The position numbers and the translations under genes were made by a program. The notes under the pieces are model-generated. The model did no database searches. It saw only the letters and a program-made list of their open reading frames with translations, and had not been told where the DNA came from. Below, piece after piece: positions 33,373-48,137 of a DNA stretch of 64,000 bases (the first letter of the stretch is position 1; each line of letters begins with the position of its first letter). Origin of the DNA: Thermoplasmata archaeon (GTDB lineage: Archaea; Thermoplasmatota; Thermoplasmata; Lutacidiplasmatales; UBA184); the NCBI GenBank assembly GCA_021798195.1, contig JAJZYH010000004.1, positions 8,095 to 72,094 of the forward strand. Reading direction: 5' to 3'.

Positions 33373-34023
33373 ATGGCGTCGACATCGGCGGATCCGCTGC
33401 GGATCCTCTTCGACACTTCGGCCATCCTGGACCTGTTCGCCCGGTGGACCGACGACCACCGGCAGCGGAGGGGGGACATGATCCGGGAGGTGGAGCTCCT
33501 GCGCCCCTTGAGCCCATTCCTCTACAGCACCGAACCCATCCGCGACGAGATCCGGCGCCAGATGTCCATCGCCGGAGAACTCAGCCGCTACATCCACTTC
33601 GAGAGCGTGGGCGATCTCGGGGCCGTGGACGCGTCCCGGTTCCCGCGATCCCGATGGGCCGACCTGAGCCTCACGGCCCTCGCACGGCGGATGGAGAGTT
33701 CGGAGTGCCGGGTGTTCATCCTCACCAAGGACCGGACGTTCGTGGAGGACCTCCGGAGGATGGATTGCCACGCCCGGATCGTTCCCCCCACCGGGTTCGC
33801 GGAGGCGATCACCGTCATTTCCCGCCCGGGCAGCCGGAGCGAACAACTGGCCCATCAGCTCCAGAACAACGCCTTCGTGAACATCTCCCGGGACATGCAG
33901 ATCGTGAAGAAGGAGCAGGGGGAGGCCGCGTACTCCGACTGGCAGACATTCCTGAATTCCCGGACCCCGGACCGACACGACCTCATCGAGGCGGTCCGGG
34001 CGACCCGCGTCCGATTGGACTGA
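33373..34023 (+). CDS. PIN-domain protein (putative nuclease), hypothetical
   Basis: N-terminal [12 protein letters not shown] (first acidic residue of the PIN fold) and a later FILTKDRTF acidic position. At 216 aa it is larger than a VapC toxin. Confidence 0.45.
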
Positions 34024-34085
34024 GGGCGGGACGCGCCGCGGGGTGGGGGCCCACCCTCCGGCACGGGGCTTCTCCCTGCGCGCCA

Positions 34086-34093
34086 CGACGCAT
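34086..34093. repeat. target-site duplication, left copy (CGACGCAT)
   Basis: Identical 8-mer immediately outside IR-L, matching 39219-39226 immediately outside the distal IR-R. Confidence 0.7.
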
Positions 34094-34101
34094 CTATAGC
34101 T

Positions 34102-35700
34102 TCAAACGAGAGGTTGCCGGAGCGGCTCCCGACGGGCCATCCAAGCCCGGATCTCCTCCCGCATCGTGGGGCTCCCCTTGCGCAGGATCCCGAGGAACTC
34201 CCGTAGCATCGGGTCCCGGTGCTTCGCTCGCGCCACGTCCGACCGACACCGCCGCGTTCGACCCTTGAGACGGCGAGCTTCCGAGAGTTTCTCCTTCGAC
34301 ACCGTCCCCATCGCCCGCACGATGTCCTCCCGCTCCCATCCCATCGCCTTCGCATATCCCTCCCGACTCCAGTTCCCCACCACCGCCATCAGCGCCCCGT
34401 GACGCGTCATCTCCTCCTCCGTCCGACCCTTCCTCGTCCGTCCTCGGATCGACAGGCGGATCTCCCGATGCCCGTGCTCGCTCCGCCAGTTCGTCCGCTC
34501 GATCTCCCTCCACCTCCCCCGAAGGTCCCGTACCTCCACGAACAGGTTCCCCTTCCTCTTCTCCCACGCCTCCCGCCTCTGCCGGACCCCCTGACGCACC
34601 TCCTCGTCGTCGATCCCCTCCGCCACCCCCTCCCATCGTCCCAGGACCTCCTCCACCTGACGGCGCTCCTCCGCCGCCGCCACCGCCACCGCTTCCCCGT
34701 CCGACCCCGTCACGTCCCGTCCCACCCCCAGCGCCTCCCGATACTCCCCGAACGCCTCCGTGAGGGTCTTCACCCGATACGCCAGCCGTGTGAACTCCCC
34801 ATCCTCCGCGAGCTTCCCCAACAGACCGTCCGCCTTCGCCAGCGAGCCGAGGAGCACGCTCCGCCCCACGTTCCACATCGCCAGCTCGTGCACCAGCGGG
34901 GCCACCGACCACACCTGGCGGGCGATCGTCCCATACGTCAGCTCGAACGGGAACCGACTCGCCCGCTCCCTCGGCCCCAGCACGTGGTCCTGCAGGATCC
35001 TCATCCACCTCGGCTCGGCGTCCTCCAGGAGCCGCTCCAACTCCTCCGCGCACCTCCGCCCCGACCCCTGCCAGTCCTCCTCCTTCCCCGGGGTGAGCTC
35101 GTTCAGTCGGGCCAGCACCCGGGTTCCCAGCAGCTTGCGCCGCACCTCCCCTTCGAGCTTCTCGAACAGGTCCTTCCCCACGTCCCGAACGTAGTGGAAT
35201 TGGCACAGCTGGAGCGGGAGACCCGACCATACCTGCCTCACCGCCTTGAGGATCCCCGTCCCCATGTCCGAGACGAGGCCCCGGGGGCGGCCGAGGGCCG
35301 CCTCCAACTCCCGGAAGAAGGCGGCGATCTCGTCCGCGTTCTCGGTGTCGAGGACCCGGGCGTCGAGGACGAGGCCGCTCCACTCGTCCCAGGCGACGAA
35401 GACGACGGGGCTCCCGGCCGTCTCCGTCCCATCGACATGGAGGAGGTAGCCCCCCTGGTCCTTCAGGGTCTTCCGAAGGGCGGGGAGCGCCCGACGGTGG
35501 AGCGCGTAGGCCCGGAGGAGGAACTCCTCCCGCCGCAGCGAGACGGTCCCGGTGCTCGGCCCCCCGTCCTCGAGGGTGGCGTGCCGACGGGTCCGCTGCT
35601 GGGTCTCCTCGAGGAAGAGGCTCTCGAGGCCGAGGAGGGTGGCGACCTTGAGGTCGTAGGTCCGATGCGCCGGAGCGACCTTGGCCAGCACGGGCGCCAC
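34102..35700 (-). CDS. DDE transposase, C-terminal catalytic part (orfB)
   Basis: 532-aa ORF inside the IS with DDE-like segments (HVDGTE..., LVSDMG..., QFHYVRDVGKDL). It is in the -1 frame relative to the upstream N-terminal ORF. Confidence 0.65.
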   Translation of the reverse strand: MAPVLAKVAPAHRTYDLKVATLLGLESLFLEETQQRTRRHATLEDGGPSTGTVSLRREEFLLRAYALHRRALPALRKTLKDQGGYLLHVDGTETAGSPVVFVAWDEWSGLVLDARVLDTENADEIAAFFRELEAALGRPRGLVSDMGTGILKAVRQVWSGLPLQLCQFHYVRDVGKDLFEKLEGEVRRKLLGTRVLARLNELTPGKEEDWQGSGRRCAEELERLLEDAEPRWMRILQDHVLGPRERASRFPFELTYGTIARQVWSVAPLVHELAMWNVGRSVLLGSLAKADGLLGKLAEDGEFTRLAYRVKTLTEAFGEYREALGVGRDVTGSDGEAVAVAAAEERRQVEEVLGRWEGVAEGIDDEEVRQGVRQRREAWEKRKGNLFVEVRDLRGRWREIERTNWRSEHGHREIRLSIRGRTRKGRTEEEMTRHGALMAVVGNWSREGYAKAMGWEREDIVRAMGTVSKEKLSEARRLKGRTRRCRSDVARAKHRDPMLREFLGILRKGSPTMREEIRAWMARREPLRQPLV

Positions 35701-35756
35701 CCAGTAGAACGGCGTCTTCGGGTGGTGACGGCAGACCCGGAGGGAAGTGCGGAAGA

Positions 35757-36311
35757 TCAGGGTGCTGCCGACGGTTTGGATCTTCCGTCGGAGCGTCTTC
35801 GGGACCTCGAGTTCCCCGTGGCACGTCGGACAGCCGGAGGGCGGTGGGGCGAGGTCGCTCGGTAGAAGAGGGAGATGGAGCGCGCGGTTTTTCTTCCCGC
35901 CTCGACACGCACCCCGACGGCGACGAGTTCCTCGGCGCGGACGGGGAGGCCGATGCGGGAGACGAAGGCGGCGAGGTCGCGGGAGGTGAGGTCGTCCTGG
36001 CGGAGGGCGTCGGTGAGGGTGGGGAAGTCGACGGGAGGGAGGGGGAAGGGGCCGTCCTCGACGACGCCCGGTAGGGTAGGGCGAGGGACGGGATGGCCGT
36101 GGCGGGCGAGTTGGGCGTAGAAGGCATGGAGGAGTTGGTCGTCGTGCAGGGCCAATACCTTCCGCTCGAGTGCGGTGCGTTTCTCCGAGGTGAGGATGTC
36201 GAGACGGCCAAGGTAGAGTTCGGTCCGGTTTCGCACGCGGGATCCGTCGCGAAAAGCTCTGGCGACAACCCAGTAATCATGGCCGCGGTTAGGGCAAATC
36301 TCGAGGAACAT
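35757..36311 (-). CDS. transposase N-terminal part (orfA), separated from orfB by a -1 frameshift (programmed slippage or inactivating mutation)
   Basis: MFLEICPNRGHDYWVVARAFRDGSRVRNRTELYLGRLD resembles the N-termini of IS1634-group transposases. The same 5' segment recurs at 38880-39218. Confidence 0.55.
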   Translation of the reverse strand: MFLEICPNRGHDYWVVARAFRDGSRVRNRTELYLGRLDILTSEKRTALERKVLALHDDQLLHAFYAQLARHGHPVPRPTLPGVVEDGPFPLPPVDFPTLTDALRQDDLTSRDLAAFVSRIGLPVRAEELVAVGVRVEAGRKTARSISLFYRATSPHRPPAVRRATGNSRSRRRSDGRSKPSAAP

Positions 36312-36497
36312 GGTACCGGGACAAATGCTCTGGCGACATACCCTCCATTTCGGGTCACCACCGTCGAGATGGCAAGGACTGGCTGGTCCGGCGGCAACCC
36401 CTCGTTTGAAGCTATAGTCCCACAGCCTCGAGGACGCATGTATTTAAATGGGACTGCCGCATTTAAAAGAGAAAAACCTACGTGCTTGAGGTATCCC

Positions 36498-38414
36498 ATG
36501 GTGGTCGGCCTGACACTTTCCAGGCTAGGGAAACGATATGTAGGAACGATTGCCGCAATCGCCTGTGCGCTCATTCTAATCACCGCTGCCAGTCTTGCGC
36601 TTACCCGGACCGCCCCGCCTCCGGCTCCTCCTGCTATAAAGCCGGTCGCCGCATTCGGACCGAAACTCCTTGTCCATGAGCCCGGAGGTCGTAGCGCCCT
36701 TGCCAACAACACCACCATCAACATTCAGATCTTTTCGGCTGTCCCGAACGCGTTTCGTTCAACCGGCCTCCTCTTCTATCCGGTTTCACCACAGGACCAG
36801 TGGACCAATGGGGTAAACGAAGAACTCCTCAATGCCACACTCTTCCCGGGCAACAACACGACGGCCTTCTTCCTCGCTCCATCATTCAATACGATCGCTC
36901 AGGAGTGGACCGTTCTTCTCTCCCACGACCAGGGAAGGAATTTCCCGTCCCTAACCGTTGAGGCCGTGAAAACGGTGAACATGAGCGGCAACCTCTACCT
37001 CTACCAGTATTACAACAATCTCCCTTACAACCCGTTTGATCTCAAGGTAGTCAACCTGAACCAAACGGACCTTGCATTAGGAGGCGCCAGTTGGTTTGAT
37101 GGCACCGGGGTCAATGTTACTGACTACTCTCAAATTATCATGGCAAACCTTGAACTTAACCTGACGCTGGAATTCCCGAGCCACCCGATTCAGGTGGTGC
37201 CCGTACCCCCACCAAACTCCTTTAGAAGCGCCCACCAGATCCCCGCTGAACGTGGCCCGGCAGGCTGTGCTGTGCAAGGCGAGAGTTGTATCTACGAGTA
37301 TTACTATACCTATCCGAGCGTGACTACCAACACGCTGGTCAAGACCACGTTCGCCAACGGAACGTTACCATTGCTGGGTGTTCACATAGGACGGAACGCC
37401 GAAGGGGGCGGGTCAGTGATTGCCCTGAGCGCTGATGTCAATGTGTTGAATGATACCATCGAATTGAATTCTGTCCAACCGTATGAGAACGCTTCCGGAC
37501 AAATCACCACCACAATGAGCACATCCCCCTCGTTCGCGCACGAAGCCAACGTGAGCGTGGGCCAGGCGAATAACCAGTTTGATGCCATTCCCACCGGAAT
37601 TTCCAAGGACCTCGGGAACAACAACTCGGTCTCCTTGAATCGGACGACTGCCATTGTAGGAATCCAGGGCGTGGAGTACGAATTCCAGCACTACAAACGG
37701 GAGACCTACAACTACGTGGATTACTGGGAGAGAATGTGTTGCCCGCGTCCCAACGGTGACTGGGGTTGCTTTACCTATTTGCTTTCACAGACCGTTTCCA
37801 CAGTATATGATGGGCAATACACGGATGGCGAGATTGTCCATGTCAACTCCACGGCCGGCCTAGCCCTCCAGGCGGGGTTCATATCAATCTGGGCCGCCTG
37901 GGTCATTCAGCACACCTTGGCGAACGCAAGCAACGGAAGCGTGACGCTCACTACAAGCGGGACGGGCTCGAGCTACGAAGCCTCGACCATCTGGGCCGAC
38001 ACAAACGGTTATCTAGACGCCTCCAATGCATACAGTCAAGCTGCAAATCTGCTGGGGACCTTCTCCACCGCGCTGGGCCTGGGGCTGGCCATTGTCGATG
38101 CCTCCGCCGCGTTGAATGGAGCGGACTTTGATGCCACAGAGCCGACCGTGGTCGCAGATAGTCTCTCCCTCATTGCGGACACGATTGGAATGGCGGCGTC
38201 CGTATTGAACGCCTTCTCCTCCATCAGTGCGTACACAGGAACGCAGTCGATCACCCTTGGCTACGGATTCAGTAATGTCCCCGAAGCAGGATCAGGATCG
38301 CCATACACAATGGCCTTCTTCGAGAGTCAGAGCCCCGTGAGCTTGAGCGTGAACGGAAACACTTACTCGTTCTTCGCCCCCGAGGACTTTTTGAATGCGA
38401 CGGCGATTGCGTGA
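36498..38414 (+). CDS. secreted/anchored surface glycoprotein (S-layer-like), low-GC cargo gene of the composite element
   Basis: N-terminal hydrophobic anchor/signal (IAAIACALILITAASLALT) and more than 20 N-x-S/T sequons (NNTTIN, NATLFPGNNTT, NVTDYS, NLTLEF, NDTIELNS, NNNSVSLNRTT, NASNGSVTLTT...). The segment GC is visibly about 50% against about 68% for the flanks. An upstream AT-rich TATA-like box (ATTTAAAAG) sits about 30 nt before the ATG. Confidence 0.7.
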   Translation: MVVGLTLSRLGKRYVGTIAAIACALILITAASLALTRTAPPPAPPAIKPVAAFGPKLLVHEPGGRSALANNTTINIQIFSAVPNAFRSTGLLFYPVSPQDQWTNGVNEELLNATLFPGNNTTAFFLAPSFNTIAQEWTVLLSHDQGRNFPSLTVEAVKTVNMSGNLYLYQYYNNLPYNPFDLKVVNLNQTDLALGGASWFDGTGVNVTDYSQIIMANLELNLTLEFPSHPIQVVPVPPPNSFRSAHQIPAERGPAGCAVQGESCIYEYYYTYPSVTTNTLVKTTFANGTLPLLGVHIGRNAEGGGSVIALSADVNVLNDTIELNSVQPYENASGQITTTMSTSPSFAHEANVSVGQANNQFDAIPTGISKDLGNNNSVSLNRTTAIVGIQGVEYEFQHYKRETYNYVDYWERMCCPRPNGDWGCFTYLLSQTVSTVYDGQYTDGEIVHVNSTAGLALQAGFISIWAAWVIQHTLANASNGSVTLTTSGTGSSYEASTIWADTNGYLDASNAYSQAANLLGTFSTALGLGLAIVDASAALNGADFDATEPTVVADSLSLIADTIGMAASVLNAFSSISAYTGTQSITLGYGFSNVPEAGSGSPYTMAFFESQSPVSLSVNGNTYSFFAPEDFLNATAIA

Positions 38415-38561
38415 TATGAAGGGGAAGTGAGCCTTTAGCCCTGCGGCTACTTCCCCCGGGCCCATCTTCGACAAAGCGGCCGGTGCCTTCTCGGAGAACG
38501 TGAGTTGTAGGCACGCCTTGACAAGATTGTGGACACACTCACGTCCTGGATTCCGTGAGAC

Positions 38562-38880
38562 CTACACCACAGGCAGGTAGCGGGTAGCGCCGAGGGCGGT
38601 GAGGACCTCCTCCTGCTTGCCGGAGAGACGGGGCACCCCTTCCCGGATCGATTTCCCCGCGCTCGACCTCACCCACGGCACATTCTCGAGGAGCCGCAGT
38701 GCTTCGGAGAGGCTTTTCTCGGGGAGTTTCCGCTTCAGGGTCCGCTCCGTCCAGCTCCAGAGCAGCCAGGCCGTGTAGAGGACCGTCGCGCTCGCGTACA
38801 TCCGGTCCAACCGGTGCTTCCGGACCGGCTCGAGGTGGAGTTCCCCCTTGCCCGTTCGGAAGACCTTCTCGATCCCCTCG
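38562..38880 (-). pseudogene. C-terminal fragment of an IS4-family transposase gene (remnant)
   Basis: The translation ...RSPSPEGIEKVFRTGKGELHLEPVRKHRLDRMYASATVLYTAWLL matches the IS4-family C-terminal Y-x2-R-x3-E-x6-K signature region. It is truncated abruptly at the junction with the partial IS copy at 38880. Confidence 0.45.
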
Positions 38881-39218
38881 GGCGAGGGACGGGATGGCCG
38901 TGGCGGGCGAGTTGGGCGTAGAAGGCATGGAGGAGTTGGTCGTCGTGCAGGGCCAATACCTTCCGCTCGAGTGCGGTGCGTTTCTCCGAGGTGAGGATGT
39001 CGAGACGGCCAAGGTAGAGTTCGGTCCGGTTTCGCACGCGGGATCCGTCGCGAAAAGCTCTGGCGACAACCCAGTAATCATGGCCGCGGTTAGGGCAAAT
39101 CTCGAGGAACATGGTACCGGGACAAATGCTCTGGCGACATACCCTCCATTTCGGGTCACCACCGTCGAGATGGCAAGGACTGGCTGGTCCGGCGGCAACC
39201 CCTCGTTTGAAGCTATAG
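38880..39218 (-). repeat. partial (about 339 bp) direct copy of the IS right end, including IR-R and the transposase 5' coding region
   Basis: Near-identical to 36080-36417 (ggcgagggacgggatggccgtggcgggcgagttgggcgtagaaggcatgg...ctcgtttgaagctatag). Confidence 0.8.
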
Positions 39219-39226
39219 CGACGCAT
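39219..39226. repeat. target-site duplication, right copy (CGACGCAT)
   Basis: See 34086-34093. Confidence 0.7.
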
Positions 39227-43515: not shown

Positions 43516-44739
43516 ATGGAGAGCCTCCGGTTCGCATTCATCTCCTCCCACCATCCCTCTGAAGGCGGTCAGGGGCTTGCCCACGTGGTCTCCTCGCTCT
43601 CGCAGGTCCTGGCGGGTCGGGGCCATCAGGTGACGGTCCTCTATCCGGTGTACACGCGGTCCAAGGATGCTCCGCGGGAAGAGCTCTGGAACGGGATCCG
43701 TTCCGTGCCCGTACCCTGGCACCGATTCGGGAGGCTCCCGTTCGGGAGGGACATCGAGTTCTCCTGGAATGCCGCACGGAGGCTGGATGGAGATCTCGAC
43801 ATCGTGGTGGTGAACAACGAGCACGGAGGACGCTTCGTGGTCCGCCGTTGCGAAACCCTCCGGAACGGCTCCAAGGCACGGCGGCCCGTGACCCTCATGG
43901 TCTTCCACGGGGTGGCACTCCGTTTCCTCGAGATGGGGCGCACCGATCGGCCGGACCGGCTCCGGGCGCGCCTGGGATATCGGGCCGACGCCGTCGCCTT
44001 GCGGTGGCTCGAGGGGGGCGCCGCCCGCCGCGCAGACGCCTGCGTGGCCTGCTCCCGCAAGGTGGCGCACGATGTGGCGACCCTCTACGGGGTCCCGGCA
44101 TCCCGGATCTCCGTGATCTACAACGGGGTGGACCCCACTCCGGAGCGGACACCTCCGGAGAAGAAGGAGGCCCGGGAGGAGTTGGGGATCCGCGACGAGG
44201 AGTTCTGCCTGTCCTTCCTGGCGAGGGACCCGCGGCGGAAGGGGTTCGATGTGGCCGTGGCCACCGTCCGGCTCCTGAGGGAGCGGGGGGTCCCGGCCAC
44301 GCTCCTCAACGTGGGGAACACGTGCCCGGGCTCGCCGGAGGTACGGAGCCTGGGCTCCCTCGACGCCCGAGGGAAGAGGCAGGCCCTCGCGGCCAGCGAC
44401 GTGTTCTTCCTTCCCACGTGGTACGAGGGCCTCCCGCTGGCGATCCAGGAGGCCGCCGCCATGGGGATCCCGGTGGTGACCACGCCGGAGGCGAACCTGG
44501 AGTGGGGCGTGGCGGGTCGGGATTACCTGGTGAACTCGCCCAACCGCCCCGAGGTCCATGCCGAGGCGCTCGCGTCCCTCTACCGGGAGCCGGAGCGGAG
44601 GGAGGCGATGGGCCTCAGGGGCCGGGAGACGCTGGGGGTACGCCCGTATTCTCTCCAGGCCCAGGAGTACGAGGAGTTGGGCCGGCGGATCCTGGGCGCT
44701 CCCCGGGGACGGGCCGCCGCCCTCTTCGGGTCCGGATGA
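43516..44739 (+). CDS. GT4-family glycosyltransferase
   Basis: GT-B C-terminal motif TWYEGLPLAIQEAAAMGIPVV (EX7E). The N-terminal domain FISSHHPSEGGQGLAHVVSSLSQVLAGRGHQVTV is typical of GT4. Confidence 0.75.
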   Translation: MESLRFAFISSHHPSEGGQGLAHVVSSLSQVLAGRGHQVTVLYPVYTRSKDAPREELWNGIRSVPVPWHRFGRLPFGRDIEFSWNAARRLDGDLDIVVVNNEHGGRFVVRRCETLRNGSKARRPVTLMVFHGVALRFLEMGRTDRPDRLRARLGYRADAVALRWLEGGAARRADACVACSRKVAHDVATLYGVPASRISVIYNGVDPTPERTPPEKKEAREELGIRDEEFCLSFLARDPRRKGFDVAVATVRLLRERGVPATLLNVGNTCPGSPEVRSLGSLDARGKRQALAASDVFFLPTWYEGLPLAIQEAAAMGIPVVTTPEANLEWGVAGRDYLVNSPNRPEVHAEALASLYREPERREAMGLRGRETLGVRPYSLQAQEYEELGRRILGAPRGRAAALFGSG

Positions 44740-47700
44740 TGAAAGCCACCAGAGCGGGCGCCACGAACCAGACCGCAAGGAGGAGGAGGGTGACGAGGCT
44801 CCCCAGGATCCCCTCCCCGAAGGCCCCCTGGACCCAGGGGAGCCCGATGGTGATGTTCTGACTCCCCGGCGGCACGACGAAGGCGGTGGCCCACCCGTCC
44901 ACCACGATCGAGGGAAGGAGGCCCACGGCGGTGTGCGCGGACCACCCCGCGGAGGCCGGGACACGGTCCACCAGGAGCCGGGGGCCGCCCTCCGGTGGGA
45001 GTTCCAGGGAGAGCGCCATGGAGCCGGGAGATCCGGAGGTCACGGTGCCGGTCTCGAGTTGCCCGGACGCAAGGAGCTCCCGGAGCTCGGAGAGGGGAGA
45101 GCCCGAGGTCGCCGGGACCAGGTCCACCAGATCCACGGTGACGTTCCCGGAGAGGACCCGGAGGGAGACCTCGTAGCTACCTATGCCGGAGGCCAAGGAG
45201 CCCACCGAGGAGTACCACTCTGGGGTCCCGGACCGGATCGCAGCGGTGACGTTGACGGGGCCCGGACACGGGGCCGCCGGGGTGGGATCCGAATATCCTC
45301 CCGGATCCGGGCAGAGGGAGATCCCCAGGGTCCCATTCCCCTGGGCCCGGACCGTGGCGCCCAGGGGACCCGGGCGCAGGACTTGGATCCGGGAGGAGGC
45401 GGAGCTCCCGGCCGGCCCACCTCCCCCCCAGCCCTGGCTCATCTCGGCGCCGGTCTCCCATTGGGACCACCCGCCCGATGAAGTGGCGAGGGAGCCCTTG
45501 ATCTGGTAGATCGCGGTGGGTCCTCCGCCGGGCACGGGGGCCAGCGCGGCGCTCAGGTCGGCCGCCGCGCGGTCGATCTGCGAGGGGGTGGCCCAAGCGA
45601 GGGTGGCCACGGTGCTCTCCCCCGGACCGGTGTGGAGGAGGGTCGCCACGGAGGCGGACCCCGTGAGGACCCCGAGGGGAACCCAGCGGAACCCGAGGGG
45701 GACGGGGCTCCACGCATCGACGGAGAACGTCTGGGAGCCCAGGGATACCTCAAGCTCTCCTTCCTGGGGCCCGAAGAAGACCTCGGCGAAGAGCGTCGCC
45801 CCGGGGGCGGTGGGGGAAGAGAGAGGGACCTGGAGGGGCGCTCCGCCAGTGGATCGGGCCCAGTCCTCCCAGGCCGCCAGGGGGATCCCTCCTTCGGTCT
45901 GGGGGGCCGCTTCCCAGGGGAGCCAGACACCCGGCGTCGTGGGGAGGAACGGGCTCGCTCCCAGGGAGTTCCAGGCGGCGGGGGCCACCGAAACGAGATC
46001 GCCGGGCGGGAGGGATTGGAAGAGCGCGTCGCTCCAACCCCCGGGAGTCTCCACGGTGAGGTTCCAGAGAGGCTGCGGAGGGAGGGGTCCTCCCGGGAGG
46101 AAGGCCACCGTGTCGTTCCGGAGGTAGCCCGGCCCTCCCGGAAGGTAGCCCGCCTCGAGGAGGAACTCCCGGTTGGCCAGGGCCACGGTGGCCCGGTCCG
46201 TGGCGGTGAGGATGCCCGGCGTGTCGTTGGTCCGGTAGAGTTCATCCCCGCCGGAGGCGAATCCCGGGGGGAGGTCCGCCTGGGCCGCCAGGGCCCGGGT
46301 AAGGTTCTCCGGGGAGTCCCATCGGTAGCGGATGTCGTGGGAGACCGACTGGTTGGGAGCCACCATCCACAGGCCGGTCCCCAGGAGCCCGAAGAGGCTG
46401 GGGGCGTGGGAAGTCTCGTTCTGGTAGAAGGATTCGTAGGTCCAGAGCACCGATCGCAGGGTCGGGCCCTCGGCTTCCACGCCGGTGGTGAGAGGGATGT
46501 AGAGTGCGTCGGCACTGGGGTAGACCACGAACGGGTCCGTGGTGGCCGGCTTCCCCGGTGCCGGAAAGTACGCCGGGTCAGGGGGGAAGAGGGCGATGCG
46601 CCCTCCGGGGGGCGCGAGCTCCGATGCGGTGGCGGCGAGCGGGGTGACCGGGGGCGCACGGATCATCTCCCCCCCGAGGCTTCCCGCCGCGAAGGGGAGG
46701 GCCCCCACCAACACGATGACGACGCAGGCGACCCCCCAGACCCGGGGAAGGGCGGGAGGGGACGACGGGAGGCGGGGGGACAGGGTCCTCCCCCGAAGAG
46801 GATTCCCCGGGGCACGGATCGTCCACCGGGGAAGTCCCTTCCCCAGGAGGAACGCAAGGGCGGGGAGGGCCACCACGTCGAACTTGTTGGGATCGTCGTT
46901 CACGGCGAACAGTGGCACGTGGGCCACCAGTTGCAGGTAGATGGGGCCCAGGGCGAGGGTGCCGGCGGACAGGAGGAGGAAGGGGAGCGAGAGGAGGCCG
47001 AAGAGGCGGCTCTGGGGATCCCCGCGAAGGAGGCCCCAGAGGAGGGCGCCTCCCAGCACCACCGAGAGGGCCCCGGCCGCGAGCGGACCGGCCGCCGGCG
47101 CCGCGAGGGCGGCCCAAGCCGAGTCGTAGGCGGGGGAGAAGTAGCCGTTCCCCGAGAGGAGGTTCCAGGGAGTGAGCTGTCCCTGGGTGAAGGCGAGGGT
47201 GTTGGCGATGGTGGCCACCTGGACCCCGGCCTGCCCCGTCCGTCGGGAGATCTCGGCGGCCGGCCACACCCAAACGAGGTTCAACCCCACGGCACCGGCG
47301 AGGATGATGAGGTCCCCCAGGAACCCATGCACCGTCGGGCGCCAGGGTCTCGGCGACCCTGCCTTGGACGAGCGGCGATGCCGGATCCAGATGAGTCCCG
47401 TGCGGAGGATCACGAAGGCGAGCCACGCGAGGGCGGCGAGGTAGAACAGGTGGTACTCCAGGAAGCCGACCCCTCCCAGGAGAACGAGGGCGAGGAGCGT
47501 GGCCTTCCGTTCTTCCGGGCCCAGGACCCGGGTCCCCATCACGGCGAGGAACGGGGGGAAGAGGAGGTAGGCCAGGAGGATGTTCTCGTGCCCGGCCACG
47601 AACCGGTTGAAGACCCACGGAGACAGGGCGAAGGCGAGCGACGCGATCCCTGCCGATCCGGTGGGGATCCCCAGATGCCGCGCCGAAAGGTAGAACGAGA

Positions 47701-48097
47701 GTCCCAGGCCCGCCTCCGTGAGGAGGAGGAGGGCCACGGCCCCCTCGCCGGCCGACCCCAGGGCGACCCCCAATCCCCCCAGGGCCGCGCCCAAGAGGAG
47801 ATCGTTGGTGAAGAAGGGCTCGAAGGTCCCCCCGGCCGGCTGGGGGTTCCAGGGGGTGGAGAACGCGAGGAGGTACGCGTGCCAGTTCCCGCCGCTGGGG
47901 GGGGTCACCACGTCGCCGCTGTAGAACGCGTCCCCCCACGGATGCAGGGCCGGCAGGAACGAGAGGAGGGCGAAGGAAGCCCAGACGATGAGACCGATCC
48001 CCAGGGCATGGCGCGGGACCCTGGCCCAACGCGCCAGCGACTTCGTTCCATCCCTCATGCGGCGGGAGACGGACGAACTGGGGGAAGGGTCGGTCAT
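44615..48097 (-). CDS. about 1160-aa polytopic membrane protein with a large extracytoplasmic domain and a C-terminal TM anchor: putative GT-C-type glycosyltransferase or surface-glycan assembly protein
   Basis: About 12 N-terminal transmembrane helices, then about 600 aa of extracytoplasmic sequence with N-x-S/T sequons, then a final TM (LLLLAVWFVAPALVAFII) and a basic tail. No WWDYG motif, so not a canonical AglB. Convergently overlaps the GT4 gene by about 125 nt. Confidence 0.55.
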   Translation of the reverse strand: MTDPSPSSSVSRRMRDGTKSLARWARVPRHALGIGLIVWASFALLSFLPALHPWGDAFYSGDVVTPPSGGNWHAYLLAFSTPWNPQPAGGTFEPFFTNDLLLGAALGGLGVALGSAGEGAVALLLLTEAGLGLSFYLSARHLGIPTGSAGIASLAFALSPWVFNRFVAGHENILLAYLLFPPFLAVMGTRVLGPEERKATLLALVLLGGVGFLEYHLFYLAALAWLAFVILRTGLIWIRHRRSSKAGSPRPWRPTVHGFLGDLIILAGAVGLNLVWVWPAAEISRRTGQAGVQVATIANTLAFTQGQLTPWNLLSGNGYFSPAYDSAWAALAAPAAGPLAAGALSVVLGGALLWGLLRGDPQSRLFGLLSLPFLLLSAGTLALGPIYLQLVAHVPLFAVNDDPNKFDVVALPALAFLLGKGLPRWTIRAPGNPLRGRTLSPRLPSSPPALPRVWGVACVVIVLVGALPFAAGSLGGEMIRAPPVTPLAATASELAPPGGRIALFPPDPAYFPAPGKPATTDPFVVYPSADALYIPLTTGVEAEGPTLRSVLWTYESFYQNETSHAPSLFGLLGTGLWMVAPNQSVSHDIRYRWDSPENLTRALAAQADLPPGFASGGDELYRTNDTPGILTATDRATVALANREFLLEAGYLPGGPGYLRNDTVAFLPGGPLPPQPLWNLTVETPGGWSDALFQSLPPGDLVSVAPAAWNSLGASPFLPTTPGVWLPWEAAPQTEGGIPLAAWEDWARSTGGAPLQVPLSSPTAPGATLFAEVFFGPQEGELEVSLGSQTFSVDAWSPVPLGFRWVPLGVLTGSASVATLLHTGPGESTVATLAWATPSQIDRAAADLSAALAPVPGGGPTAIYQIKGSLATSSGGWSQWETGAEMSQGWGGGGPAGSSASSRIQVLRPGPLGATVRAQGNGTLGISLCPDPGGYSDPTPAAPCPGPVNVTAAIRSGTPEWYSSVGSLASGIGSYEVSLRVLSGNVTVDLVDLVPATSGSPLSELRELLASGQLETGTVTSGSPGSMALSLELPPEGGPRLLVDRVPASAGWSAHTAVGLLPSIVVDGWATAFVVPPGSQNITIGLPWVQGAFGEGILGSLVTLLLLAVWFVAPALVAFIIRTRRGRRPVPGERPGSAGPTPRTPGPGENTGVPPASPGP

Positions 48098-48137
48098 GGG
48101 ACGGGTAGGGTCCCTCCCCATGGGAAGCATCCCCCCA

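Follow-up and report, generated by a model that had tools for sequence, protein, structure and literature searches.

A compound insertion-sequence element with a predicted surface-protein gene at an insertion-polymorphic site upstream of an archaeal proteasome gene

Introduction

In an uncultured archaeon from acid-mine-type metagenomes (68% GC, probably a member of the Thermoplasmata), the spacer between a PIN-like gene and psmB, the proteasome beta-subunit gene, is occupied by 5.1 kb of DNA in which a protein-coding gene is bracketed by sequences of a single insertion sequence (IS). The locus raises the question of whether the IS brought the gene into the spacer as one transposing unit, or whether IS and gene arrived one after the other. 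A sequence-only reading of the window, the whole 64-kb stretch of DNA that was analysed, had taken identical 8-mers at the two outer ends to imply that all 5.1 kb had moved as one. We re-examined the element together with metagenome contigs from the same population.

The element is real, but as an instance of a mobile element importing a gene it is mechanistically ordinary. Compound transposition, loop-out between IS repeats, and capture through IS homology are all textbook processes, and no new mechanism is involved. The locus is of interest since its empty, IS-only, and IS-plus-cargo states let the gain and loss of an IS-linked surface-protein gene be tracked with ordinary metagenome reads. 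Our impression is that well-documented natural cases of all three states of one site from one archaeal population are uncommon. Moreover, the locus defines two uncharacterised families: a 2.3-kb insertion sequence resembling IS256, whose -1 frameshift is conserved, and a predicted extracellular protein, specific to Thermoplasmatota, with a confident predicted structure and without a solved relative.

Results

Structure of the compound element

The compound element spans positions 34094-39218 (5,125 bp) and is insertion-polymorphic. It consists of a complete insertion sequence, here called ISx, a 2.46-kb passenger segment that includes one end of a second insertion sequence, ISy, and a 339-bp stub of ISx. 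The complete ISx (34094-36417, 2,324 bp, transposase genes on the minus strand) terminates in 26-nt inverted repeats. The transposase-distal repeat CTATAGCTTCAAACGAGAGGTTGCCG (34094-34119, plus strand; previously IR-L) matches the reverse complement of the orfA-proximal repeat (36392-36417, minus strand; previously IR-R, but IRL by the ISfinder convention) at 25 of 26 positions, and equally that of the outermost repeat at 39193-39218. Inverted termini were thus rightly recognised earlier, although their length of 25 bp has to be corrected to 26 nt with one mismatch. The 64-kb window holds no further copy of this repeat, with 0 expected by chance.

The stub (38880-39218, minus strand) is a direct copy of the orfA-side end of ISx (36079-36417, minus strand), which takes in the inverted repeat, the 5' region, and 77 codons from the start of orfA. 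The two copies are identical at 339 of 339 positions, in agreement with the sequence-only reading except that its start of the first copy, 36080, was one nucleotide off. At the inner boundary of the stub (38879/38880), the interior of ISy is joined bluntly to the interior of ISx, without microhomology.

What remains of ISy is a 317-bp fragment (38563-38879, minus strand) containing a 12-nt terminal inverted repeat (38563-38574) and the last 105 transposase codons, ending abruptly at 38879. The fragment matches the NCBIfam IS1634 model (E 6.9e-12) over positions 385-481 of 483. A full-length ISy encoding a 555-aa transposase is found in contig L003, which departs from the window exactly at 38879/38880; this transposase matches PF01609 (DDE_Tnp_1) with E 2.7e-7 and 31 bits (cut-off 23), as befits a DDE_Tnp_1-type member of the IS1634 family. 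The unrelated transposase remnant, formerly labelled IS4-family, is therefore confirmed as the C-terminal end of an IS1634-family enzyme.

Immediately outside the outer ends lies the same 8-mer, CGACGCAT, at 34086-34093 and at 39219-39226, exactly as had been reported. The accompanying chance expectation of 1 in 65,000 was too low; it becomes about 1 in 24,000 once the 68% GC content is allowed for. The right copy is located 80 nt upstream of the psmB ATG (39307), and the TATA-like TTTTATA of psmB at ~39249 is undamaged by the insertion. The insertion site between the two genes is as described before, whereas the name "PIN-domain gene" for the left neighbour relies on a single faint Pfam match (E 0.13). 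With the ends, the direct repeat, and the outer 8-mers all found, the IS-bounded insertion is genuine. The cargo is bracketed by the complete ISx and the 339-nt terminal fragment of the same IS, and the whole 5.1-kb unit is flanked by a target-site duplication of IS-typical length, 8 bp also being the duplication length of the related element in L038. The two outermost ISx ends match as a left/right pair and are bounded by a true 8-bp target duplication.

The ISx transposase

The ISx transposase is encoded in two overlapping frames, both intact. The upstream frame, orfA (35757-36311, minus strand, 184 aa), is kept in the related elements of L040 and L038. The downstream frame, orfB (34102-35700, minus strand, 532 aa from its first GTG), contains the predicted DDE-type catalytic core and stays open upstream of the GTG as far as the slip site. 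The candidate -1 slippage site is the motif GGGAAGAAAAAC with its A-run in the orfA/orfB overlap (35887-35898, minus strand), and the predicted orfA-orfB fusion product comprises 735 aa. In three elements of 74-80% identity, GGGAAGAAAAAC is identical and orfB lies in the -1 frame. Because the overlap is conserved in relatives this diverged, the -1 shift is probably programmed; slippage itself we infer. The split by a -1 frameshift noted previously is thus upheld, but not as damage to the gene.

Whereas orfA matched nothing in Pfam, orfB showed weak matches to NCBIfam IS1249 (E 4e-9, 36 bits against a cut-off of 300), NCBIfam IS256 (E 1.5e-7, 30.8 bits against 150), and Pfam Transposase_mut (14.2 bits, cut-off 21) and MULE (14.6 bits, cut-off 27.6), the latter two with E 0.02-0.05; the curated thresholds of the IS256 family are therefore not reached. 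The transposase sequence contains the strings HVDGT, VSDMG, and LQLCQFHYVRD; the catalytic Glu was not located in it, and Cys166 and His169 of the CxxH in orfB are invariant in 10 homologues. Members of the IS256 family are 1.2-1.5 kb long, with a single transposase ORF of ~400 aa and an 8-9-bp duplication. ISx departs from this layout with its 2,324 bp, two frames, and predicted 735-aa fusion, while its 8-bp duplication fits. Judged by this weak family similarity, ISx is a distant IS256/Mutator-type element, and we infer transposase activity and the transposition mechanism from that similarity only.

The cargo gene

The cargo gene (36498-38414, plus strand) encodes a 638-aa protein of an uncharacterised family confined to the phylum Thermoplasmatota and small in size (35 homologue clusters, 120 representatives). 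Its 80-nt upstream region (36418-36497, plus strand) holds two TATA-like A/T-rich boxes, one (36441-36449) with a SNP at 36445 in half of the contigs and the other (36461-36469) invariant. A hydrophobic transmembrane or signal segment is predicted at residues 13-37. We counted 19 N-X-S/T sequons, fewer than the "more than 20" of the sequence-only reading, albeit still ~2.2x the 8.6 +/- 2.6 in shuffled sequences; the homologues carry 13-27 each. From the secretion/anchor signal and the sequon enrichment, the product is predicted to be a membrane-anchored, sequon-rich extracellular protein, a surface glycoprotein by prediction only. The AF2 model is confident (pLDDT 85, pTM 0.84). Searches of Pfam, NCBIfam, and PDB sequences and a fold search returned no match, and by the same searches no sequence or fold relation to a known S-layer protein family was found. 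The "S-layer-like" antigen and the virus-receptor exchange proposed by the sequence-only reading find no support here.

The GC content of the gene is 0.553 (windows 0.51-0.59), not about 50% as estimated earlier. The underlying claim of a composition distinct from the host holds when measured: the cargo has a GC3 of 0.66 compared with 0.89-0.96 in its neighbours and is the strongest tetranucleotide outlier in the 64 kb (z = 8.6). By composition, the gene appears foreign and horizontally acquired, and it is intact, with four of its five coding polymorphisms at third codon positions. Transfer between archaeal genomes, which had been read as directly visible, would follow from composition only, and the donor was not found. 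As sister strains lack the cargo, the mobile element is associated with a predicted surface-protein gene being gained or lost.

Three alleles in the population

Metagenome contigs of the same population present the spacer in three forms: empty, with ISx alone, and with the 5.1-kb compound element. The search for an empty site proposed by the sequence-only reading succeeded, as L023, L025, and L026 carry a single CGACGCAT and have 150 nt between the PIN-like stop and the psmB start. The coexistence of the empty, ISx-only, and compound alleles, the empty ones with one copy of the 8-mer, identifies the duplication as a true target-site duplication. ISx alone is present in two contigs of metagenome-assembled genomes (MAGs), L018 and L019, which run directly from ISx into psmB and share the site, the 8-mer CGACGCAT, and the adjacent flank haplotype with the compound allele.

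The compound allele was found in independent assemblies. L029 connects the PIN-like gene to ISx, passes through the repeat and the cargo, and reaches the second repeat by way of the ISy remnant; the sole other allele detected in its sample was the empty one (L025). In the contig pairs L001/L020 and L002/L021, the repeat leads into the cargo and the ISy remnant, and the second repeat then connects to psmB. Most cargo contigs end at the repeat boundaries. The exact cargo protein occurs on 22 contigs against two MAGs with ISx only, which makes the compound element the common occupied form. In the genome and metagenome contig scans, including the 22 cargo contigs, neither a donor locus nor the 5.1-kb unit at a second site with a different duplication was found.

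Up to the insertion point, the flank haplotypes of ISx-only and compound alleles are identical, while empty and occupied alleles differ at 13 of 62 nt on the left (34024-34085) and at four of the first five nt on the right. The common haplotype of the occupied alleles, so unlike the empty one, points to one insertion and one secondary event. L018 also differs by a 25-SNP patch within the PIN-like gene, so that ISx alone resides on at least two flank backgrounds. At 34472-34474, both ISx-only contigs read GTT and both confirmed compound contigs CCG, so that the ISx-only alleles did not arise as recent, repeated loop-outs from the compound haplotypes sampled. The other variable sites of ISx show mixed haplotypes and give no polarity of ancestry.

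Two further contigs bear on the passenger segment. L041 is a circularly permuted contig of 2,878 bp (2,801 bp plus a 77-nt overlap) containing exactly one repeat and the passenger; it was binned apart from the host and labelled "Nitrososphaerota archaeon". L003 has the order ISx end, cargo, full ISy, and an unplaced gene without a relative in genome contigs or the protein database. This contig may be a chimeric graph walk, since the 317-nt ISy remnant exceeds k = 141 and is thus shared with any full ISy copy.

Discussion

How did the compound allele arise? We tentatively favour, with a probability of about 0.45, that the 5.1-kb unit was built elsewhere, transposed whole into the spacer, and later gave rise to the ISx-only allele by loop-out. 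According to this reading, ISx would have landed 80 nt upstream of the passenger start codon at another locus, and a second ISx copy or a 2.8-kb tandem duplication would have joined the downstream stub to a truncated ISy. The ISx transposase could then have used the far-left end together with the distal right end, moving 5.1 kb into the spacer with duplication of CGACGCAT. Related elements such as IS256 move by copy-out/paste-in with a circular intermediate. Later homologous recombination between the 339-nt repeats would have released the passenger as a 2,801-bp circle and left ISx alone. Many contigs cross the left part of ISx unbroken, and it is therefore single-copy there; a one-step unit needs just one ISx arrival. 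L041 has the form expected of a loop between direct repeats.

Close known arrangements are the classical compound transposons, above all Tn4001, in which IS256 copies surround aacA-aphD, with an 8-bp duplication. Both elements hold cargo between sequences of one IS, have outer inverted repeats forming a transposable pair, an 8-bp target duplication, and an IS256/Mutator-type transposase. The present element differs in that its second copy is reduced to a 339-bp stub and is oriented directly, not inverted, in its 2.3-kb IS with the orfA/orfB -1 arrangement below the curated IS256 cut-offs, and in its archaeal host and non-resistance cargo; movement of the whole unit would also be a deduction here. 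Tn6330 (ISApl1-mcr-1-pap2-ISApl1) is bacterial, of the IS30 family, and makes a 2-bp duplication. It likewise has IS copies around a recently captured gene, and part-lost variants coexist in related strains, but its decay drops the IS copies and fixes the cargo, whereas the variant found here retains the IS without the cargo.

Against whole-unit transposition stands that the 5.1-kb unit occurs at one site only. Moreover, the ISx-only alleles L018 and L019, with their shared site, 8-mer, and flank haplotype, remove the earlier argument that the duplication implies movement of the entire 5.1 kb: a simple ISx insertion could have produced it, and the cargo could have been captured afterwards by recombination within ISx, which fits the duplication equally well. 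This alternative, in which the 5.1-kb unit never transposed, is a serious possibility, if not a probable one, and the ISx-only allele is equally expected from it. Its presence on at least two flank backgrounds, as well as its GTT haplotype unlike the confirmed compound contigs, speaks for ISx having come first. Capture might have proceeded by integration of a 2,801-bp circle, such as L041 could represent, or of a linear fragment with the 339-nt ISx end, cargo, and ISy remnant, through homologous recombination; this route takes extra steps, as the stub-plus-cargo structure must first arise somewhere. Alternatively, ISx might have placed a copy of itself upstream of the cargo in a foreign replicon, at the target TCCCACAG; a crossover between the two ISx copies would then have integrated the whole replicon, which a deletion between the interiors of ISy and of the second ISx copy would have trimmed. 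The blunt interior-interior junction at 38879/38880 is explained as this trimming deletion, and L003, if real, is what a free or freshly integrated replicon would look like, fitting such an intermediate at least as well as it fits unit transposition. The possible chimerism of L003 and its flank gene without relatives weaken this support; the compound allele, not ISx alone, is common, and no contig has two full ISx copies at the locus.

IS-mediated replicon integration is well known from Hfr-type cointegrates formed by recombination between IS copies. That process resembles our locus in its order of IS, foreign DNA, and direct IS with the chromosomal duplication kept outside, but here no replicon backbone is left, and the only hint of one is the unplaced gene beside the full-length ISy in L003. 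The closest model for capture is provided by the translocatable units of IS26. In IS26 pseudo-compound transposons, the cargo lies between directly repeated IS copies; cargo and one IS-derived segment can leave as a circle, with one IS and the original 8-bp duplication staying behind, and the translocatable-unit circle can re-enter beside a resident IS26 copy (PMC7986276). A translocatable unit of the IS26 type proper is ruled out here, since the ISx transposase does not belong to the IS6 family and the 2,801-bp period has just 339 nt of ISx and no complete IS. As the circle would carry only a 339-bp IS fragment without transposase, re-entry would take place by host homologous recombination rather than by a transposase-targeted reaction.

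A broader, and to us doubtful, reading regards the 2.8-kb module as a transposase-less translocatable cassette that would loop out via the 339-nt repeats and, by host homologous recombination, could re-enter any genome with a resident ISx "landing pad". Surface-protein genes, and perhaps glycosylation genes, would then be exchanged at ISx copies among coexisting Thermoplasmata strains. A second cassette would be present in L022, where a low-GC3 gene resembling GDP-mannose dehydratase borders the same ISy-ISx junction.

We consider it improbable that the 5.1-kb arrangement is an assembly ambiguity, with a chromosome bearing ISx only and the 2.8-kb repeat-plus-cargo residing on a molecule of its own, either circular or amplified in tandem. 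For k-mers shorter than 339 nt, the assembly graph is the same in either case, and the 5.1-kb arrangement would be one of its permitted walks. L041, self-overlapping over exactly one period and binned apart from the host, the cargo contigs, most of which stop at repeat boundaries, and the two MAG contigs passing straight from ISx to psmB are as expected of such a molecule. However, L029 leaves the ISx interior by way of the complete repeat, traverses the cargo, and enters the repeat again, and since psmB is otherwise joined only to the empty allele in this sample, no ISx-to-psmB path is needed there. Furthermore, the window contig, L001, and L002 cross the second repeat into psmB; the unit lacks a replication gene, yet appears in more than 20 samples; and a free circle would still require a chromosomal duplication as its source.

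Related elements with the same ends and 74-90% nucleotide identity to ISx are found in L038, L040, and L042. The one in L038 has its own 8-bp duplication, TTCGCATC, which has CGCAT in common with CGACGCAT, the only other duplication known in the group, and those in L040 and L042 border one common flank, but in opposite orientations. Both observations hint at a target preference, by which ISx alone and the 5.1-kb unit could have entered the same 8-mer independently, but we regard this as very improbable, given that the two occupied alleles agree fully in position, orientation, 8-mer, and flank haplotype, that this haplotype is sharply unlike that of the empty alleles, and that ISx, single-copy in these populations, gives no sign of frequent transposition.

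Structure of the compound unit

The sequence-only reading had described a 5.1-kb structure bounded by IS ends with identical 8-mers at both outer ends, and every feature it listed is present in the sequence. The complete IS, termed ISx, occupies 34094-36417 (2,324 bp) with its two transposase frames on the minus strand. Its ends are inverted repeats of 26 nt, instead of the 25 nt reported at first, with one mismatch. The sole further copy of the ISx end in the 64-kb window lies at 39193-39218, where none is expected by chance. The direct repeat that had been noticed runs from 36079, not from the start given earlier, to 36417 and recurs at 38880-39218 with an identity of 339/339. The 8-mer CGACGCAT directly borders the left ISx end on its outer side (34086-34093) and likewise the distal right end (39219-39226); two 8-mers would match by chance about once in 24,000 when the 68% GC is taken into account. 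In another genome, L038 carries an element 74% identical to ISx that has made an 8-bp duplication of its own, TTCGCATC, and 8 bp is thus the duplication size made by this group of IS. Between the two 339-nt repeats lie the cargo gene and a remnant of an IS1634-family element, ISy (38563-38879), which retains a terminal inverted repeat and 105 codons at the end of the transposase frame.

In the cargo upstream region, 14 nt outside the inner ISx end, GGACGCAT at 36432-36439 matches CGACGCAT at 7/8 positions. CGCAT also occurs within the L038 duplication, and the plus strand of the window has GACGCAT eight times. The near-copy and the common CGCAT may reflect a target preference, or else coincidence. 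Two other ISx relatives from two MAGs (L040:3159-5556 and L042:about 125-2483) sit at one common junction in opposite orientation, both abutting the same flank, which adjoins an Nre_N/Nre_C gene; no clean duplication was found around either. Their opposite orientations could stem from inversion via the terminal repeats or from repeated insertion at one site.

Three alleles at the psmB spacer

Contigs for the comparison of alleles were found by exact neighbouring proteins in public assemblies. They derive from the same species-level population, with right flanks 99.4-99.9% identical (differences of 0.6% or less). The runs behind these loci are SRR13170414, SRR13236739, SRR28285717, SRR7275281 and SRR28401814; further loci came from assemblies ERZ27237313, ERZ27237319, ERZ27237364, ERZ27237490, ERZ27233557 and related ERZ2723xxxx, and the MAGs concerned are GCA_0273783xx-785xx and GCA_027327965.1.

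The empty site that the sequence-only reading had suggested looking for was found in three contigs (L023, L025 and L026), in which 150 nt separate the PIN-like gene from psmB, the proteasome beta subunit gene. The left and right flank alignments overlap there by exactly 8 nt, a single CGACGCAT. The 8-bp duplication at the 5.1-kb unit is real. The ISx-only allele (L018; L019/L028; two MAGs) reads flank, ISx, flank; the same 8-mer stands to either side of ISx, and the cargo is absent. The compound allele is covered by L029, which leads from the PIN-like gene across ISx, its repeat, the cargo and the ISy remnant and on into the second repeat, and by L001/L020 and L002/L021, which connect the repeat to psmB by way of the cargo, the ISy remnant and the second repeat. 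Both occupied allele types have one flank haplotype in common up to the insertion point, and the empty haplotype differs from it at 13/62 nt on the left (34024-34085) and at four of the first five on the right. The common haplotype favours one insertion event for the outer ends and one later, secondary event separating the two forms. Within ISx, the SNP sites that differ between ISx-only and compound alleles occur in mixed combinations, giving no polarity.

The PIN-like gene and the left spacer are unusually variable among strains: on the left, empty alleles diverge by 4-5%, and L018 differs from the window at 33495-33677 by a 25-SNP patch within 180 nt of the PIN-like gene. This left neighbour (33373-34023) had been labelled a PIN-domain gene. 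A Pfam PIN match exists, but it is faint (E 0.13, N-terminal 24 residues), and the gene has no NCBIfam family.

Origin of the compound allele

The duplication had been taken to imply that the 5.1-kb unit transposed as one element. The duplication holds, but two histories account well for it, of which unit transposition is one. We assign a probability of roughly 0.45 to unit transposition followed by loss of the cargo in some strains. The unit would have been assembled elsewhere; the transposase would have brought the far-left and distal right ends together and inserted 5.1 kb into the psmB spacer, and recombination between the 339-nt repeats would later have removed the cargo in some strains. 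Contigs cross the left 1,985 bp of ISx unbroken, so ISx is single-copy in these populations, which makes one arrival more economical than two. The compound form is the commoner occupied allele, which also counts for unit transposition, as does a circularly permuted contig whose ends overlap by 77 nt (L041:1-2878; GCA_029784975.1, JAFMAN010000169.1). Its period, 2,801 bp (2,878 = 2,801 + 77), comprises precisely one 339-nt repeat and the cargo segment. This contig was binned and named 'Nitrososphaerota archaeon', most likely a binning artefact from deviant composition or coverage. Exact-pattern scans of genome_contigs for the ISx end, and of metagenome_contigs for the ISx end and the ISy/ISx junction, returned nothing and thus yielded no further sites and no donor.

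The second history, tentative yet a serious contender, has a simple ISx insertion making the duplication and the cargo entering afterwards via ISx homology, either as a circle or fragment or on a foreign replicon with a copied-in ISx that integrated and was then trimmed by deletion. At the junction between 38879 and 38880 the ISy interior is joined to the ISx interior with microhomology absent, which marks it as a deletion or duplication scar rather than a transposition junction, and a trimming deletion would explain this blunt joint. Later entry would also explain contig L003, in which the cargo is directly followed by a full-length IS1634-family ISy (L003:2286-4388; 555-aa transposase, 12-nt inverted repeats TACACCACAGGC) and an unplaced gene, the divergence from the window falling exactly at that junction. 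Moreover, the ISx-only alleles occur on two flank backgrounds and share GTT at 34472-34474, which is absent from the confirmed compound contigs.

The ORF after the full ISy in L003 encodes 103 aa; relatives were absent from genome_contigs and from a 5.8-billion-protein database. Another contig end (L022:1-1030, GCA_027378495.1) lies upstream of the same ISy/ISx junction, 339-nt repeat and psmB but is without the cargo. Of the ISy remnant, only the ~115 nt nearest the junction are identical to the window; the contig then continues into an ISy variant ~15% divergent, beyond which lies a partial GDP-mannose-4,6-dehydratase-like gene with GC3 of 0.69, atypical as the cargo is. Either this locus has a second cassette or a rearrangement in L022, or the contig was assembled as a chimera. 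As the assemblers' k is shorter than the ISy remnant, a chimeric walk through the graph may underlie L003 and L022 alike.

An ISx-only chromosome accompanied by a free 2.8-kb circle would yield an identical assembly graph, but such an artefact is improbable: L029 passes through ISx, repeat, cargo and repeat in turn, and in its sample psmB otherwise occurs only with the empty allele. Independent insertions of ISx and of the unit at the same site are more improbable still, against the single insertion that the common flank haplotype argues for.

The ISx transposase

The transposase is split, as had been read, into orfA (184 aa) and orfB in a -1 relation, with the motif GGGAAGAAAAAC in their overlap (35887-35898, minus strand). 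The same arrangement and motif are kept in the L038 and L040 elements, only 74-80% identical to ISx; the split is thus a conserved feature rather than damage, and we rejected the view that the frameshift marks a dead transposase. The -1 frameshift is probably programmed, and GGGAAGAAAAAC is a candidate site of programmed -1 frameshifting or transcriptional slippage in an archaeal IS. The predicted OrfAB fusion product has 735 aa.

Against NCBIfam, the transposase matched IS1249 (E 4e-9; 36 bits, where the cut-off is 300) as well as IS256, and Pfam returned Mutator and MULE matches at E 0.02-0.05. As these matches are weak and below the curated cut-off, we place ISx, weakly, as a distant element of IS256/Mutator type that does not reach curated membership. 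The CxxH motif does not vary among homologues. Homologue clusters numbered only 18 and came from MAGs of Thermoplasmata and from metagenomes of mine drainage. On bacterial plasmids, relatives of the catalytic core bear the annotation 'ISNCY family'.

The cargo gene

The cargo gene (36498-38414, plus strand) is intact and encodes 638 aa with an N-terminal hydrophobic segment; two TATA-like boxes are kept in the 80 nt upstream. The richness in sequons noted earlier is confirmed as an excess over shuffles (19 versus 8.6 +/- 2.6), although the count is 19 and not more than 20. The claimed compositional distinctness from the host is likewise borne out, at a GC of 0.55 instead of 0.50: GC3 is 0.66 compared with 0.89-0.96 in the PIN-like, psmB, CPSF-like and SdhA-like genes, no interval of the window deviates more in tetranucleotide usage than that of the cargo (robust z 8.6), and only the cargo kilobases fall below 0.61 GC. 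The closest homologue (63% identical, L013:259-2411) has a GC3 of 0.90 in a 70%-GC contig. The low GC3 is thus not imposed by the protein, and amino-acid composition alone was rejected as its cause. Among the contigs, four of the five polymorphic sites in the coding sequence are at third codon positions.

The cargo family is restricted to its lineage and has few members (35 clusters and 120 representatives out of 1.8 billion proteins), whose neighbourhoods are unrelated to each other. Directly upstream of the L013 homologue are a serine recombinase (IS607-like, E 2.8e-12) and a 534-aa protein without a family, another mobile-element context for these proteins. The cargo gave no match in Pfam or NCBIfam, among PDB sequences, or in phage and plasmid collections; distant members gave none in Pfam or NCBIfam except P0157, with a spurious SprB-repeat match. 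A first AF2 model from 32 sequences was unusable (pLDDT 51). The data allow the product to be described as a membrane-anchored, probably glycosylated extracellular protein. Because Pfam, NCBIfam and PDB sequences offered no match, we limit the reading to a predicted surface protein rather than an 'S-layer-like' one. A native cargo locus, as we envisage it, would be without ISx upstream, would carry a single TCCCACAG, and would name the donor lineage.

Relation to known elements

The feature was real and accurately observed, and its interpretation partly over-read. Of the traits that define a compound transposon, bracketing ends and a duplication were both found, and movement as a unit is one hypothesis here. 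The compound transposon Tn4001 combines an IS256-type IS with an 8-bp duplication, and the unit is functionally of the same kind, alike in both respects, whereas here one IS copy is a terminal stub and the copies are directly oriented. The coexisting allelic states at the psmB spacer recall the decay series of Tn6330. Later entry of the cargo via ISx homology would mirror IS26 translocatable units, which enter beside a resident IS (PMC7986276), but would depend on host recombination. The whole 5.1-kb feature adds a member to a kind of element already known, from an archaeal lineage that has been little studied, and no new mechanism is involved. Its value lies in a tractable natural polymorphism and in the first description of two uncharacterised families.

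Elsewhere in the window, a 1,171-aa ORF without a Pfam match (44614-48129, minus strand) lies downstream of psmB and the CPSF-like, phosphodiesterase and GT4 glycosyltransferase genes, and overlaps the 3' end of the glycosyltransferase gene.
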